From a bacterium (lineage in GTDB: Bacteria > Patescibacteriota > Dojkabacteria > GCA-016699595), in assembly GCA_016699595.1 (NCBI GenBank), contig CP064982.1, forward strand, positions 507,962 to 571,961: a DNA stretch of 64,000 bases, written 5' to 3'. Within the stretch, counting starts at the first letter, position 1. Each line of letters starts with the position of its first letter. Under the pieces are notes generated by a model that was not told the origin of the DNA, searched no databases, and saw only the letters and a list, made by a program, of their open reading frames with translations. Below are positions 25,182 through 52,420 of this stretch, in pieces. The position numbers and the translations under genes were made by a program.

Positions 25182-28100
25182 TTAAATATACTTCAAGAAG
25201 AAAATCTTCTTCCCTGTTGATGCGAGAGAACCCAAAATCTCTCCAAAATTGATATTTTCAATATCAGAATCAATTATATTTACAGACTCTTCGTTTGAAG
25301 GTCTTTCCGTAGATGAGTACTTCTCAGGTTGTGACTCTACGACTCGATATTGACCAGGCAATAAATCAGTGAATTCATAATAGCCGAATTCATCAGTCAG
25401 AACTATTTGCCCATTTGACAAAGTCATTTTGATACCTGCAAGTGATCTGTCGCCATAATTCTTTGATTTATCGGCATTTTTATCATGATATACATAACCA
25501 GATATTGTATACAGTTTTAATCTAGCATATGCCAAGTCAGTATCCATAACATTAGCAGGTTGCCCAGATGGTAGAAGTGGTGGAGTAGCTACTACTGTTG
25601 CTACATTCACATGCTGACTTGAATCAGTTGGTGCAAGATAAGTTGCAGTACATTGCATACTCTCTCCTTCAGTCAAAACATCTTTCGGACACTGAATATT
25701 ATTTATAAGATTATCTGTAACTGATATATCATGTAGATTTGTATTTCCAGTGTTTGTCACATAGTATGTTATATTCATCATTTCTCCAGCAGATACTACA
25801 ACACCCGGAGGTGTATTTGCATCATCTCCGTTTATTTTCTTAACAATACTAATTGATGAAGATGTACCAACTAAACCTGCATCTATTGTTAAATTATTTT
25901 CTCCGACCATAAGCTCAAATTGTTCCGTATCTCCAAGAGCATCAGAATTTGAATCTGTCAAAAAACTCCCACCATTCTTGTATGTAAATTCATAACCATT
26001 AGGTTTAGCAAACCTTACTTTATAACTTCCATGCAATATATTTTCAAAAAGATAGTGTCCATCTGCATCAGTGAAAACAGTTCCAACTACATTATTCAAG
26101 CTATCCAATAATTCAACTTTCATATTTCCAAACCCAGATTCATCATTATCTTGGATCCCGTTGCCATTCTTATCTAACCAAACAAAGTTACCTATACTTC
26201 CATTAACTACTATTATAGGTACATTATTTGACTGTACTGGTAAAGCTAGACCTGTAGCTCTAAGCATAAACTTGTTTGTATAAATATCTCCTGGTTTATT
26301 CGGATTTGATATAGAAGGTATCAATACCAGCAGATACTTTGATTCTTCATTAGGTAACATTGCACTTGTTTGTATTCTAAAACCAGTAACCTCAGTTATG
26401 TTTGACGGACATCCGGCATTACCGAACTGACCTTGAGCACACCAAACTATACTTGGATTGATGGTTTGTGGGTCAAAGTCTTGAGGAAGCGTCAACAAAG
26501 ATTGTGATTGTTTCGAGTAAAGTATTGCACTTGGATCTACTCCAGATACTTTTGTCAAACTACTCAAGTAAGTAGTTCCTGTAAAATTCGTTGCAGGATT
26601 GCGCCCATCACCATTCCATGGTAGCCAATCGATGAGGTCAGTTCCAGCAACTGGATCACTTCCGGTGTTTTTCATCACAATTTCATACTCAAGTGGTTGC
26701 ATACTCTCAATTAGGGGTGAAATTGCTTTTTTGTTTACCGAAAAAGCAGATGAATTTTCAAACTGTACTGTAGCAGTAGAAGTTCGTACACTTTCAAACG
26801 AATTATCATTATCTGCAGACATAATTGCTTGATTAATTTTGATATCTCCATTACCAATGGTTGCATCTGAAATTGTTTTATATGTAATTTTTGTCAGGGG
26901 TAAACCAGAGGTTACATTACCAAAATTCCAAACTAATGTTGCACTTCCATCATTGTTCACAGTGAATGTTGGTTCACAAGTTACAGGTTGAATCATATCA
27001 GTATCCATACATATAGAAGAGCCATATTGATATCCCAATCCAGCAGGAATTGTATCTACTATTTTTACATTTATTGCTTCACCGGCTGGAGTTACTCCCA
27101 TAGCATCAGTACTTGGTTGCAAGTACCAGTTTATCTCACTCCCTGATAATTTCGAATCATTTTTTGTAGTTAAATCTTTCGTTGTTTTATTTATCCTAAC
27201 TCTAGAACCTGTAACTATTACCCTATCTCCGTGAGTGCCAGTAGCAGTATTTGCATTATAAGAAGGAACTGTTTGCCATGAACTTGGGTCATTTGGATTT
27301 GCATTAAACCAATTCCCACCTGGTATGTACCACTTACCATAATTTGGAACTATATCGCCAGGTTGTGCTGTAGGCAACATCTTATGTTTAATTGCTAAAA
27401 ATTGTACGCCATAACCTGTTTGGGCTATCATATCAGCCTGTTCAGATGCAGTAAAATTATCCCTAAATTTCAACCTAACTTTTGTAACCCGTTCAGGACC
27501 TCCAGGTATACTGTTTAGATCCAAATACCATATTCCCCCAGTAGAGTCATTATCAAAACATGTGCCAAGTCTTTCATCTTCAAAATTACTCCATGTAATT
27601 CCTTGACCATTTAGACCACCTACTCCATATTCAATAACTGCATCAGTATATGATTCCCATAAACTTGAATTTGATGGAATATGAGTAAATGCACCTTCAC
27701 CAGTATTTCCAGGGATTCTATCTATTGAAGAATTTTTGTTATCTATAGTTGTACACATAATCGAACCATTTGGTATATCAGCTATCCCATAATAATACCA
27801 AAGATTCAATGACGTCCAATTTGAATTGGCACTTAAAAACCCATCTCCTGTACGATAGGATGATCCAACATATTCTGCACCCCACCACATTGCACATGAA
27901 TCAGCATTTGCTTCAGTAATAAAGTTACAATTAATCAAATCATCGCTACGATAATCATAATCAGCTTTTTCAACCGAACCTTCAGATGGTCTAGCTATAA
28001 TTTGTTGATACCAGTTTTCAGTTCCCACTAAATCTGACTGTCCTGTTGTTTGTATATTTGTCATTCCACTACCTGGCTCATTACCAACCCCGCCCCAGTT

Positions 28101-29267
28101 TTGCCTTCCTGATATTGCTCCAATTGGCTCAAAGTTATTTATTTTATTCAGAGCAGAGATCTGATACTGATTTGATCCAGAAAACTCTGAATATGGTATC
28201 CATACACCTATTGAATACGAACCAATCCAATTATCTCTTGAAGATAAAGACACACCCGTCCAATCAACAGTTGGGAAATAAGATGGATTTGTATGAAGAT
28301 CAGTAATTGTTACATCAATTAACTGTGAATTACCCATACTAGGAATACAAGTTATTTGCCCTGAATCTTCCACAGATCTGTCAGGCGTTGAATAGCCAGG
28401 GTTATTCCCTCCATAAATACCTAATCTTCCAGCAGGTGCATTATAAGCATAGTGAAGGTTATTCGTAAATCCAGGGGTAGAAAAATAATTTAGTGACAAT
28501 CCGCATTCAAACAATTTTGCATTGGGACTAATCATTGATATATCATCTTGAAAAGTTATTGGTAAGGCAGGAATTTCTGATCCTGCACGAAGTTTCAAGC
28601 CAACTCCATAAGTCCATACTCCTCCAACTACACCATCTACTGTTATGGTTCCTCTAAATGAGGCTGACAATTTCTGTAAATCCACCTTCATGGCAGATGT
28701 TCCAGTTATATCAACTGTTGTTGCATTATCAGTATTTGGTACACCAGAAACTGAAACTGAAGCAGATACATTGAAAGTACTCCCATCAACTAATGTAGGC
28801 AAAGCTTTTACATTTGCTGTGAAACCCAGCGTATCACCCGTAGATTTTGTACCTAAGTTACATGTCAATTGACTTTGATTGTTAACGCCATCACCAGTTA
28901 TTTGTGAACCAGTTCCATTACAAACCAATGGAAGTGCTTCCCATTTATACCCTAGAGGTAAAGGAACTGTAGTCAATGTATAATTATCATAAGGGCTTGG
29001 AACAGTAGCATTTGGATCATTCAGAGAAACATCAAATCGATAGCTTGTTATCTGACCAGCCCGAACTATCTCATTACTATCACCAATGTCATTACCCGAA
29101 CCTGCAACAGAATCAAAAGGTGCAGTACCATCGAATAGTTTCGTGATAGCGATTTCAGGATAAGTGGTCGTGGAATCAGCATTAACTTTCAATTTATAGT
29201 CACTGTAAATATTTATAGATAAAAAAACAAATACAAAAAGTGTTATTAGTTTAAAGAATTTTTTCAT
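25182..29267 (-). CDS. Large secreted surface protein (1361 aa) with SdrD/Cna B-type domains and C-terminal SLASTGK motif
   Basis: Signal peptide MKKFFKLITLFVFVFLSINIYS; B-type repeats (GNFVWLDKNGNGIQD..., YTISGYVYHDKNADKSKNYGD...); C-terminus GSLASTGKKIFFLKYI. Confidence 0.75.
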   Translation of the reverse strand: MKKFFKLITLFVFVFLSINIYSDYKLKVNADSTTTYPEIAITKLFDGTAPFDSVAGSGNDIGDSNEIVRAGQITSYRFDVSLNDPNATVPSPYDNYTLTTVPLPLGYKWEALPLVCNGTGSQITGDGVNNQSQLTCNLGTKSTGDTLGFTANVKALPTLVDGSTFNVSASVSVSGVPNTDNATTVDITGTSAMKVDLQKLSASFRGTITVDGVVGGVWTYGVGLKLRAGSEIPALPITFQDDISMISPNAKLFECGLSLNYFSTPGFTNNLHYAYNAPAGRLGIYGGNNPGYSTPDRSVEDSGQITCIPSMGNSQLIDVTITDLHTNPSYFPTVDWTGVSLSSRDNWIGSYSIGVWIPYSEFSGSNQYQISALNKINNFEPIGAISGRQNWGGVGNEPGSGMTNIQTTGQSDLVGTENWYQQIIARPSEGSVEKADYDYRSDDLINCNFITEANADSCAMWWGAEYVGSSYRTGDGFLSANSNWTSLNLWYYYGIADIPNGSIMCTTIDNKNSSIDRIPGNTGEGAFTHIPSNSSLWESYTDAVIEYGVGGLNGQGITWSNFEDERLGTCFDNDSTGGIWYLDLNSIPGGPERVTKVRLKFRDNFTASEQADMIAQTGYGVQFLAIKHKMLPTAQPGDIVPNYGKWYIPGGNWFNANPNDPSSWQTVPSYNANTATGTHGDRVIVTGSRVRINKTTKDLTTKNDSKLSGSEINWYLQPSTDAMGVTPAGEAINVKIVDTIPAGLGYQYGSSICMDTDMIQPVTCEPTFTVNNDGSATLVWNFGNVTSGLPLTKITYKTISDATIGNGDIKINQAIMSADNDNSFESVRTSTATVQFENSSAFSVNKKAISPLIESMQPLEYEIVMKNTGSDPVAGTDLIDWLPWNGDGRNPATNFTGTTYLSSLTKVSGVDPSAILYSKQSQSLLTLPQDFDPQTINPSIVWCAQGQFGNAGCPSNITEVTGFRIQTSAMLPNEESKYLLVLIPSISNPNKPGDIYTNKFMLRATGLALPVQSNNVPIIVVNGSIGNFVWLDKNGNGIQDNDESGFGNMKVELLDSLNNVVGTVFTDADGHYLFENILHGSYKVRFAKPNGYEFTYKNGGSFLTDSNSDALGDTEQFELMVGENNLTIDAGLVGTSSSISIVKKINGDDANTPPGVVVSAGEMMNITYYVTNTGNTNLHDISVTDNLINNIQCPKDVLTEGESMQCTATYLAPTDSSQHVNVATVVATPPLLPSGQPANVMDTDLAYARLKLYTISGYVYHDKNADKSKNYGDRSLAGIKMTLSNGQIVLTDEFGYYEFTDLLPGQYRVVESQPEKYSSTERPSNEESVNIIDSDIENINFGEILGSLASTGKKIFFLKYI

Positions 29268-49474: not shown

Positions 49475-49636
49475 ATATTTTGTTTAAGGAATTTTCAGAA
49501 TTTCTAAAGAAAAATAAAAGTATATAAAAGTATAAAAGTAAAATTGATTATATCCTATTTTATCTGTGAATTCTATCAATACAAAATAGAAACACGTCAT
49601 CTATTCTAGCATTAAATTTGAATAATTCAATAACAA

Positions 49637-51844
49637 TCAATGAAAAAGAGAGTGTATTAAAGAAAGTAGTACATTCATCTTACCAGTACTAGCTAGAGAT
49701 GCATTGATACTAATACTAACATCCGTACTCCCCAAAACTCCTGCTATACTCTCTTTCGATACGGTTAGCATGTAGCTACTACCTGTTAGGTTTGCATTTG
49801 ATACACAACTTACACTACTTCCTGTTGCTGGTGTAGGTGTACATGTAAAGTTTGGTATAGTAACCTTATCTCCTACTTCCGTTACCACAACTACTGTAGG
49901 CTTGGTACTGTTCGTACTTGATAAGATTTCTACACGGGTACTTGTTTGTATAACTAAATTCAATACAGTCGATCTTGCTGATTCTTGTCCTGATCCATTT
50001 GTATCAGTATAACTGAGTACATAACTAGCATTTGTTACTGGGAATATCAAATTCAATGTGACTGGTCCAGTAGTTGTACATGTATAAGTTGTGAGTAGGT
50101 CATTACCACTATACACTTTTAGAGTATTTCCTACTTCACTACATATCAAGCTTACATCTGGTGTATTGTCTGATGTGACATTGTCAGTAGAAGATATACC
50201 TGTATCGCTACTAGTTAGCAGGTCAATCATTACAGGTTGAGTTGGTGGGGTACTTTCACTTACATACACATTGAAATTTTTGTCAAATACTCCCCCTAGG
50301 TTATCTGTTACTCTGATACATAGACTGTAGATACTTTTCGTTTCATAGTCTGGTTGTACATTTAGTCTTAGGTTGTTTGTTGATATATTGAAACTTCCAT
50401 CATCTAATCCTGGTACTGCACATGATAGGGAGTATGTATATGGTGAGTCTCCTTCTGCATCTGTTGCTGTCAGTACTCCAACTAGGTATGGTGATACTAT
50501 ACTCTCTGTTACTACATTATTACTTAGGCTTATGTCAGTAGGATCTTCGTTAGTATAGGTTACAAATACATCTACTATTGAATTTGTATCCCCAGGAACG
50601 AGGTTGTTAGCATCGGAAGTGAATGTTACAAATCTTCCGTCTGCAGAAATTGAAGAGAATCCAGAAAAATTATTTCCTTCTACTCCACTACTACTTACCG
50701 ATACTCTTTCTACAGTATCAGTATCTCGATCATATACAAAAATATCCTCAGTAACATTGGCATCACCAGGGACTAAATTGTTAGCATCAGAAGTGAATGT
50801 TACAAATCTTCCATCTGTAGAGATTGAAGGTACATATGAGTAGTCATTACCTTCTACCCCAGTACCACTTACTGATACTCTTTCTATATTGTCAGTATCT
50901 CGATCATATACAAATACATCTGCCATTGAATTCGTATCTCCAGGAACTAAATTGTTAGCAGCAGAAGTGAATGTTACAAATCTTCCATTTGTAGAAATTG
51001 AAGGTTCATATGAACCATCATTACCCTGTACTCCACTACTACTTACCGATACTCTTTCTACAGTATCAGTATCTCGATCATATACAAAAATATCCTCAGT
51101 AACATTGGCATCACCAGGGACTAAATTGTTAGCATCAGAAGTGAATGTTACAAATCTTCCATCTGCAGAAATTGAAGGTTCATATGAATCAATATTACCC
51201 TGTACCCCACTACTACTTACCGATACTCTTTCTACAGTGTCAGTATTTTGATCATACACAAAGATATCATCTCTAGCATTTGTATCTCCAGAAACTAAAT
51301 TGTCAGCTCGTGAAGTAAATGTTACAAATCTTCCATCTGCAGAAATTGAAGGTTGATATGAAACATGATTACCCTCTACCCCAGTACCACTTACTGATAC
51401 TCTTTCTATACTATCAGTATCTCGATCATACACAAAAATATCAGCTCTAGCATTTGTATCACCAGGGACGAGGTTATTAGCAGCAGAATAGAATGTTACA
51501 AATCTCCCATCTGCAGAAATTGAAGATTCATATGAGTAGTCATTACCTTCTACCCCAGTACCACTTACTGATACTCTTTCTATACTATCAGTATCTCGAT
51601 CATACACAAAAATATCAGCTCTAGCATTTGTATCACCAGGGACGAGGTTATTAGCATCGGAAGTGAATGTTACAAATCTTCCATCCGTAGAGGTTGAAGA
51701 TAAATATGAACCATCATTACCCTGTACTCCAGTACTATCAACTGATATTCTCTCTACATATCTTGTAGTAGCTGCATACGTAGGAAGGGTAAATATACCA
51801 AGTAGCAATAGTGTGTATGTTGTTAATTTGAGCAGTGTTTTCAT
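49637..51844 (-). CDS. Secreted surface protein with ~7 tandem 59-aa PD40/TolB-like repeats and C-terminal SLASTGK motif
   Basis: Signal peptide MKTLLKLTTYTLLLLGIFTLPTYAA; repeats of ERVSVSxxGVxGNxxSYxPSISxDGRFVTFTSxANNLVPGDTNxxxDIFVYDRDTD; C-terminus ASLASTGKMNVLLSLIHSLFH. Confidence 0.7.
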   Translation of the reverse strand: MKTLLKLTTYTLLLLGIFTLPTYAATTRYVERISVDSTGVQGNDGSYLSSTSTDGRFVTFTSDANNLVPGDTNARADIFVYDRDTDSIERVSVSGTGVEGNDYSYESSISADGRFVTFYSAANNLVPGDTNARADIFVYDRDTDSIERVSVSGTGVEGNHVSYQPSISADGRFVTFTSRADNLVSGDTNARDDIFVYDQNTDTVERVSVSSSGVQGNIDSYEPSISADGRFVTFTSDANNLVPGDANVTEDIFVYDRDTDTVERVSVSSSGVQGNDGSYEPSISTNGRFVTFTSAANNLVPGDTNSMADVFVYDRDTDNIERVSVSGTGVEGNDYSYVPSISTDGRFVTFTSDANNLVPGDANVTEDIFVYDRDTDTVERVSVSSSGVEGNNFSGFSSISADGRFVTFTSDANNLVPGDTNSIVDVFVTYTNEDPTDISLSNNVVTESIVSPYLVGVLTATDAEGDSPYTYSLSCAVPGLDDGSFNISTNNLRLNVQPDYETKSIYSLCIRVTDNLGGVFDKNFNVYVSESTPPTQPVMIDLLTSSDTGISSTDNVTSDNTPDVSLICSEVGNTLKVYSGNDLLTTYTCTTTGPVTLNLIFPVTNASYVLSYTDTNGSGQESARSTVLNLVIQTSTRVEILSSTNSTKPTVVVVTEVGDKVTIPNFTCTPTPATGSSVSCVSNANLTGSSYMLTVSKESIAGVLGSTDVSISINASLASTGKMNVLLSLIHSLFH
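50524..51769. repeat. Tandem ~177-nt repeat array (about 7 units) inside the PD40-repeat surface protein gene
   Basis: Some adjacent units are near-identical at nucleotide level over more than 100 nt (e.g. around 51377-51480 versus 51554-51657). Confidence 0.7.
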
Positions 51845-51898
51845 GTGAAAATTATTTAAGTTGATGCTAAACAATGCAATTTTATGTTAAATGCAATT

Positions 51899-52420
51899 TC
51901 ATTTCAACTTAAAATTCAAAGCATGATCCAAAATCGACAACTCTTTGGCAGTGAACCTCTCAAGCAGATAGTCAGCTCCACTCGTATATTCTTTTTGTTC
52001 TTTGGTTCTATTGTCAATCCCGACTCTAAGTCTCCAAAAGCTTTTGGTTTCGAGCCTTTGTTCGATGTCCAAAATGCCATTGTGTACCTTCGGACCTATC
52101 GCAAATTGAAGTTTGTATTCACTAAGCTGCAAATCAAGATCATCATGGATAACTAGTAATTCTTCAGGTTTTATTTTGTAATACTTTAGTTTTTTAGCTA
52201 CAAAACTACCAGATTCATTCATGAAAGTGTCTGACTTGAAAAACTTCACATCTGGGCTAAATTTCACATGCTTGAGTTCGAATATTTCGCACTTTTCGTC
52301 TCTAAACTTTGATTCAAGTCTTTCCAAAACTAGATGCCCTGCATTATGACGGGTAAATTCATACTTTTTCCCGGGATTTCCGAGTGAGACAATGAGTTTT
52401 AATTGAAAAAAGTTACTCAT
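51899..52420 (-). CDS. pth: Peptidyl-tRNA hydrolase
   Basis: KLIVSLGNPGKKYEFTRHNAGH signature; start placed at the MSNFFQ Met. Confidence 0.85.
   Translation of the reverse strand: MSNFFQLKLIVSLGNPGKKYEFTRHNAGHLVLERLESKFRDEKCEIFELKHVKFSPDVKFFKSDTFMNESGSFVAKKLKYYKIKPEELLVIHDDLDLQLSEYKLQFAIGPKVHNGILDIEQRLETKSFWRLRVGIDNRTKEQKEYTSGADYLLERFTAKELSILDHALNFKLK

Follow-up and report, generated by a model that had tools for sequence, protein, structure and literature searches.

β-Propellers built from closely similar blades form a described class. Highly repetitive propellers are those in which the median pairwise identity of consecutive blades exceeds 60% (Pereira & Lupas 2022, PMC9218822). Their reported features (PMC9218822) are a strong likeness among blades, close homologues whose blade sets are not orthologous, copies disrupted by stops in frame, and doubts about assembly. 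Of the groups listed in that work, "DPPIV-like" propellers are the nearest and have a median blade count of 13; PD40, TolB and Patescibacteria have no occurrence in its main text. None of the papers listed in our search for a connection between PD40 and Patescibacteria contains the term PD40. Here, we describe a PD40 propeller protein gene located in a 64,000-nucleotide (nt) stretch of contig CP064982.1, hereafter the window, whose numbering is used throughout. The genome is small and AT-rich (ca 0.76 Mb; 33.5% G+C in the window) and is probably that of a member of Patescibacteria. Those close homologues of neighbouring genes that have a named source are from Patescibacteria. With a median identity of 0.76 across its seven blades, the protein is, on its sequence, a member of the highly repetitive class. 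We consider it likely that these seven blades form the N-terminal propeller of an exported, probably cell-wall-anchored accessory protein.

The repeat array occupies positions 50537-51754 on the minus strand. It is composed of exactly seven head-to-tail units, each of 174 nt or 58 amino acids (aa), with no indel, and covers 1218 nt in the register of the protein. A repeat search also gave seven copies with a start-to-start spacing of exactly 174 nt. Tandem Repeats Finder delimited region 50582-51762 and assigned to it 6.8 copies of a 174-nt period, which match at 83% with 1% indels; a period of 348 nt fits the array barely better. A first-pass annotation of the window had placed at 50524-51769 about seven near-identical units of 177 nt and 59 aa. 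The tandem array is present, its ends had been placed with an error of no more than about 15 nt and the approximate count of seven proves exact, but the unit is one codon shorter. "Near-identical" was also too strong. Identity between pairs of units ranges from 70 to 93% at the nucleotide level, with a mean of 80%, and from 64 to 88% at the amino-acid level. Synonymous divergence (dS, Nei-Gojobori) between units is 0.13-1.05, with a median of 0.45. The first six units, W1 to W6, share 79-93% of their nucleotides among themselves.

The PD40-like character of the units, already recognized in the first-pass annotation, is confirmed by Pfam (PF07676, E 3.7e-15, 55.8 bits for a cut-off of 20.9). 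An AlphaFold2 model of aa 34-455, calculated with 43 homologues, has a predicted local distance difference test (pLDDT) of 94 and a predicted template modelling score (pTM) of 0.92. It shows one four-strand pattern repeated seven times, that is 28 strands. Foldseek matches the model to the propellers of S9 peptidases, TolB, oligogalacturonate lyase and tricorn with E values around 1e-14. The array opens with a lone strand, "RYVERISV", and its last unit contributes three strands, finishing with "DVFVTYT". This is the arrangement needed for a 1+3 "velcro" closure, as judged from the sequence and the strand count. The units are therefore predicted to be seven four-stranded blades of one closed PD40/TolB-type β-propeller.

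Blade number in the family was examined with a hidden Markov model (HMM) derived from the seven window units. More than 8000 homologues were found, most of them with PF07676, and HMM matches were counted in the 120 best-scoring ones. Fourteen units are present in 92 of them, seven in 4 and 13 in 17. Most of the 13-unit homologues carry one double-length spacing, indicating that in most of them one unit was missed. No homologue with 8, 9 or 10 units was found among the best 120. Where a long linker is present in homologues, it comes after the seventh unit. The blade number of the family is clearly quantised, at seven per propeller. Together with the predicted closed ring, this count implies that copy number is structurally constrained, unlike that of a linear stalk repeat. 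The family median of blade identity is 0.55, lower than the value found here, and 26% of the top 120 homologues exceed 0.60. One alignment (A1) was discarded because in it MAFFT had paired the C-terminal domains with the second of the two propellers in 14-blade homologues.

Two pairs of long exact tracts are found within the array (Table 1). The two copies of a 137-nt tract are 348 nt, or two units, apart, and those of a 108-nt tract are 174 nt apart, in adjacent units. The next-longest exact direct repeats measure 56 and 37 nt. The first-pass statement that units are in places identical over more than 100 nt is thus correct. To evaluate these lengths we used a null model in which conservation is kept at each of the 174 unit columns. 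In 5000 simulations, the longest exact run had a mean of 37 nt and a maximum of 69 nt. Since both observed tracts are above this maximum, they are not due to chance and are signatures of recent copying between units. Background divergence between strains predicts about 4-5 differences in 137 nt and none is observed; the exact tracts are therefore younger than the strain split described below. They are best read as the result of intragenic gene conversion or of partial duplication. No PD40 units that could have acted as conversion donors were found by the unit HMM elsewhere in the window.

The likeness of the blades would have two causes. The first would be a strong family blade consensus kept under purifying selection. 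The second would be amplification together with continuing, partial homogenisation by intragenic recombination or gene conversion, of which the 137- and 108-nt tracts would be the youngest traces. The tracts are present, yet overall blade dS reaches 1.05. Homogenisation thus appears to be recent and partial, and the amplification itself older. The tracts are also long enough for homologous recombination, and a crossover between their copies is predicted to remove two blades or one blade in frame. Because of ring closure and of the family count of seven, most of the length products of such crossovers are argued to be defective. Blade number would be fixed by ring closure at seven per propeller, and the array would not behave as a free-running variable-number repeat.

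The first-pass annotation had proposed a comparison of repeat number between strains. It was made with a sister strain represented by two Logan contigs, L001 and L002, which come from different runs (SRR30164251 and SRR30164240) and do not differ anywhere in the gene. The sister strain carries five units and the window seven. The gene order gatA-pth-PD40-fusA is common to both. Flanking genes are close: dS is 0.057 in gatA, 0.083 in fusA and 0.109 in pth. Over its last 299 codons, the PD40 gene itself behaves as these flanks do (dS 0.072, dN 0.021, ratio about 0.3, where dN is nonsynonymous divergence). The N-terminus corresponds to the same signal peptide in both strains, with 5 nucleotide differences across 30 codons. 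When the two sequences are compared in sliding bins, they are 90-100% identical outside the array, apart from one 60-nt bin of the pth-PD40 spacer at 83%. Immediately beside the array identity is 95-98%; its collapse falls precisely at 51762 and its return precisely at 50527. The strains are otherwise 94-97% identical and their divergence is confined to the propeller module.

Inside the module, the two strains diverge. The five sister blades are 42-70% identical among themselves. Blades at the same position in the two strains share 66-74% of their nucleotides, with dS of 0.62-1.05, and for four of the five sister blades no window blade is nearer than dS 0.62. The fourth sister blade is degenerate, has 53 aa and has no counterpart in the window. 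An origin of this odd blade by frameshift was rejected, as no canonical blade is present in the other frames. The longest exact repeat within the sister array is at most 26 nt, so that the count of five is not a collapse of an assembly at k=31. One sister blade, R1 (L001 4074-4247), is near W5 (dS 0.15, dN 0.17) and far from W1 (dS 0.75). The similar nonsynonymous and synonymous rates between R1 and W5 hint at blade ancestry shared across positions and at relaxed or diversifying selection.

The sister allele is probably non-functional, either a pseudogene or an "off" variant. It has a TGA at codon 32 (L001 4073-4075, and likewise in L002), corresponding to window positions 51749-51751, where the window has AGA. 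This AGA encodes the conserved arginine of the first "ERxSV" strand, just past the signal peptide. The next possible start in the sister allele is a GTG at L001 4217, which would give a protein without signal peptide. A reading of TGA as a sense codon (code 25) was rejected, since TGA terminates 7 of the 39 long open reading frames (ORFs). In-frame TGA is absent from the EF-G, EF-Tu and PD40 genes of the window.

Blade dS in the window (median 0.45, minimum 0.13) is far above genome dS. This argues that the array is older than the split between the strains and has not been re-amplified since, and that a single array existing at the split cannot be ancestral to both of today's arrays. On the sequences, replacement of the entire module is the simplest account of the difference between strains. 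The propeller would be a discrete hypervariable module between conserved flanks, swapped as a whole by recombination. Replacement would have occurred in one lineage, with the conserved flanks as the sites of exchange or with a paralogue beyond the window as the source. Such a module may be proposed to bind a ligand or the host.

In the nearest relative beyond the species-level group (L008 322-1434), whose pth gene is 72% identical, pth is followed by fusA after a 153-nt spacer, without a PD40 gene. The PD40 gene may thus be an accessory insertion between housekeeping genes, or it may have been lost in this relative. The L008 pth-fusA spacer was aligned with the window spacers in search of the insertion point, but has diverged too far for the comparison to help. 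In the more remote pth neighbourhoods, L009-L011, gene order differs and tells nothing of the locus. Scans of genome and metagenome contigs gave no orthologue of the PD40 C-terminal region; the corresponding protein search, with 305 aa, missed even P0001 and P0050, which contain this region at 100% and 96% identity, and is thus uninformative. Neither the window protein nor P0001 has an entry in the contig index. With the C-terminal query, contig scans returned only distant cadherin-like matches at 33-42% identity, in L003 (Pirellulales) and in L004 and L005 (metagenome).

The coding sequence of the window runs to a stop codon at 49637-49639 (Table 1). Its 735-aa product is 100% identical to QQR93355.1 (P0001), "PD40 domain-containing protein [bacterium]". 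An in-frame TTG upstream, at 51874, extends the ORF to 745 aa (49637-51874). The start codon is therefore uncertain by 10 codons, between TTG 51874 of the mechanical ORF and ATG 51844 of GenBank. At the upstream start position the sister strain has an ATG (MGLFIINLNNFHMKT...); only a product begun at the downstream ATG shows a signal peptide of canonical appearance. By inspection, the N-terminus looks like a Sec-type signal, with a basic n-region, a hydrophobic core and a T-Y-A small-residue site. After the propeller, Pfam identifies two domains. The match to cadherin PF00028 (E 1.5e-4, 22.5 bits) is under the cut-off of 28.8 and the domain is named here "cadherin-like" only, whereas Big_13 PF19077, an immunoglobulin (Ig)-like domain, passes its gathering score (E 2.4e-8, 34.8 bits for a cut-off of 27). 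A full-length AlphaFold model, based on a two-sequence alignment, had a pLDDT of 45 and was unusable, so that the C-terminal architecture is described from Pfam only. The protein ends with ...SLASTGKMNVLLSLIHSLFH.

A second protein of the window shares this type of ending. It is encoded at 25182-29267 on the minus strand, has 1361 aa with SdrD_B, DUF7507 and SpaA domains, and ends with ...SLASTGKKIFFLKYI. These domains are typical of sortase-anchored Gram-positive surface proteins, and LAXTG is the motif of class E sortases. "SLASTGK" followed by a hydrophobic tail is common to the two proteins. This suggests that the shared tail is a LAXTG-type sorting signal, perhaps a lineage-specific one with an unusually short tail. 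The layout of the PD40 protein would consist of a signal peptide, the propeller, the cadherin-like and Big_13 Ig-like domains, a β-rich region and the LASTG tail. Such a layout makes the first-pass label of surface protein plausible, and the protein is probably anchored to the cell wall.

Several points weigh against this picture of a fixed, seven-bladed, anchored propeller. The fold is predicted and not solved, and ring closure is deduced from the sequence and the strand count. Ranking homologues by summed bit score biases the census of blades towards long arrays. The hydrophobic tails are short, 13 aa in the PD40 protein and 8 in the other, and lack a basic end. No TLxTC sortase motif was found in the ORFs of the 64-kb window. 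The strain comparison concerns a single related lineage, represented by two identical contigs, and is one comparison with no outgroup. Finally, the five-blade allele indicates that arrays with other than seven blades can exist, though this one is probably defective.

A more elaborate proposal, which we find rather unlikely, would make the propeller a swappable, diversifying module for recognition, carried by an accessory sortase-anchored adhesin of an episymbiotic candidate phyla radiation (CPR) bacterium. Alleles with seven and five blades would be exchanged through the signal-peptide and cadherin-like flanks and kept polymorphic by host or phage pressure. The exact tracts would add an in-frame switch of two blades or one blade. 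The ends of the short-read contigs described below would reflect co-existing alleles.

The first-pass annotation read the array as a contingency-type repeat: in-frame gain and loss of units, through slippage or unequal recombination, would make the surface protein vary in size and antigenicity. Part of the argument holds. The 137- and 108-nt tracts are adequate for RecA-type recombination, with in-frame loss of 348 or 174 nt as the expected outcome, and a strain at flank dS of 0.06-0.11 has five units instead of seven. VCBS propellers more than 80% identical also differ in blade number, with 3, 4, 6 and 9 blades (PMC9218822), and the short-read contigs break off at the array. The difference between the strains is nevertheless a divergence or replacement of the whole module and not slippage of units. 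The five-blade allele is no deletion product, in view of the dS of four of its five blades, of the degenerate 53-aa blade and of the TGA codon 32; the one related lineage available has five units with sequences that cannot be derived from the window units and with a nonsense codon. Near-identical units throughout, as expected for a variable-number locus, are not found, given the mean of 80% and the range of 70-93%. The first-pass annotation had itself named synonymous divergence between units as the sign of ancient, stable repeats, and the median of 0.45 is about five times the strain-to-strain dS. The family count, quantised at 7 or 14, and the predicted closed ring should moreover disfavour most variants with one unit more or less. 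Taken together, a contingency-type repeat is distinctly unlikely.

Re-amplification of the whole array from a single blade, after the split from the sister strain, would explain why W1-W6, with 79-93% nucleotide identity among themselves, are less like the sister blades at the same positions (66-74%). Independent amplification is documented in homologues more than 80% identical (PMC9218822). However, window blade dS exceeds the genome dS of 0.06-0.11 even at its minimum. Most of the blade divergence therefore predates the split, and only the exact tracts are younger, which makes this scenario highly unlikely.

The first-pass annotation had also warned that the array is prone to assembly collapse. 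Two Logan contigs from short reads (L006 and L007, SRR11674035) are 100% identical to the window over 55092-51751 and 49636-47143. In this assembly, the gene is missing between the third base of blade 1 and the end of the stop codon, and the contig ends bracket the entire mature-protein coding region. The warning is thus justified in that short-read contigs miss the gene. Repeated 31-mers first occur at 51682 and none is found near 49636; internal repeats therefore do not explain the contig ends, and the window has the canonical seven units. Alleles that co-exist, low coverage or repeats in another part of the genome may account for these ends. It is extremely unlikely that the copy number of the window is an artefact of an array collapsed or expanded at the exact tracts: repeats offset by 348 and 174 nt could be mis-joined by short-read assemblers, independent short-read contigs do not span the gene and the same caveat has been raised for repetitive propellers (PMC9218822), but such events would yield 5, 6, 8 or 9 units, whereas seven is the canonical family number, the array is in frame with its lone first strand, three-strand last unit and confident 28-strand prediction, and the source record is a single contig of 761,814 bp.

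Two tRNA-Met (CAT) genes, at 18324-18397 and 18483-18557 on the minus strand and 86 nt apart, are the only RNA genes of the window according to ARAGORN and Rfam. The features of the PD40 locus are collected in Table 1.

Table 1. Positions of the PD40 propeller gene, its blades, exact tracts and predicted domains in the window.
Feature	Position	Strand	Remarks
PD40 propeller protein, coding sequence	49637..51844	-	ORF list; 735 aa from ATG 51844; stop 49637-49639
Blade 1 (W1)	51581..51754	-	protein register; unit-HMM match E 1.5e-36
Blade 2 (W2)	51407..51580	-	protein register and unit HMM
Blade 3 (W3)	51233..51406	-	protein register and unit HMM
Blade 4 (W4)	51059..51232	-	protein register and unit HMM
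Blade 5 (W5)	50885..51058	-	protein register and unit HMM
Blade 6 (W6)	50711..50884	-	unit HMM; 93% nucleotide identity with W4
Blade 7 (W7)	50537..50710	-	unit HMM; most divergent, 70-75% nucleotide identity to the other units
137-nt exact tract, copy A	50681..50817		end of W6 and start of W7
137-nt exact tract, copy B	51029..51165		end of W4 and start of W5; identical to 50681-50817
108-nt exact tract, copy A	51375..51482		end of W2 and start of W3
108-nt exact tract, copy B	51549..51656		end of W1 and start of W2; identical to 51375-51482
Signal-peptide-like N-terminus	51773..51844	-	MKTLLKLTTYTLLLLGIFTLPTYA/ATT; read by eye from the translation
Cadherin-like domain	50297..50512	-	aa 455-526 (745-aa numbering); Pfam PF00028
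Big_13 Ig-like domain	49949..50236	-	aa 547-642; Pfam PF19077
LASTG motif and short hydrophobic tail	49640..49696	-	LASTGKMNVLLSLIHSLFH; candidate LAXTG-type sorting signal
Promoter-like site TTGAAA-17-TAAAAT	51879..51907	-	immediately upstream of the gene; consensus scan 10/12; no commoner than in shuffled sequence

Amplification and re-homogenisation of blades are well described; here they would concern a PD40 lineage in a probable Patescibacteria genome. The closest system (2019, PMC6805158) shares with this locus a median blade identity above 60% (76% here), partly visible at the nucleotide level, an array at a protein terminus, and blade counts at a preferred number and its double. Non-orthologous blade sets, versions disrupted by in-frame stops and the assembly caveat are also common to both. 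In contrast to highly repetitive propellers, amplification here is not very recent, as judged from the median dS, and divergence is confined to the module. In Patescibacteria, surface proteins are the main candidates for host-cell attachment. If the module-confined divergence is confirmed in more strains, the accessory protein could be a fast-evolving, possibly host- or phage-facing determinant.

The PF07676 signature and the Foldseek similarity link the protein to TolB and to S9 prolyl-oligopeptidase/DPPIV propellers. TolB propellers have six blades and those of S9 peptidases typically seven. An identification as TolB itself was rejected: the 39.4 bits of TIGR02800 are below its cut-off of 343.15, and the match is limited to propeller positions 287-387. 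Unlike TolB, the PD40 protein is devoid of the TolB N-terminal domain. Unlike S9 peptidases, it has no peptidase domain, and the cadherin-like and Big_13 domains follow the propeller. The propeller of the Friedel-Crafts alkylase CylK (PDB 7ron) has only 13% sequence identity with it; CylK, an enzyme, also has a Ca-binding domain at its N-terminus.

With sortase-anchored Gram-positive proteins, the PD40 protein shares a signal peptide, an Ig-like and cadherin-like stalk and L-A-S-T-G followed by a hydrophobic stretch. It differs from them by the short tails (13 and 8 residues) without a basic end, and no sortase gene was seen in the 64-kb window. With the alpha C protein/Rib and the staphylococcal SD repeats, it shares in-frame tandem repeats in a surface protein and exact stretches that could allow recombination. 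In-frame, near-identical surface repeats do not by themselves show a variable-number contingency locus. The repeats of the alpha C protein/Rib and SD families are linear, fold independently or are disordered, vary freely in number and are typically about 100% identical. In contrast, the units described here would be interdependent blades of a closed ring, 70-93% identical and with a quantised copy number.

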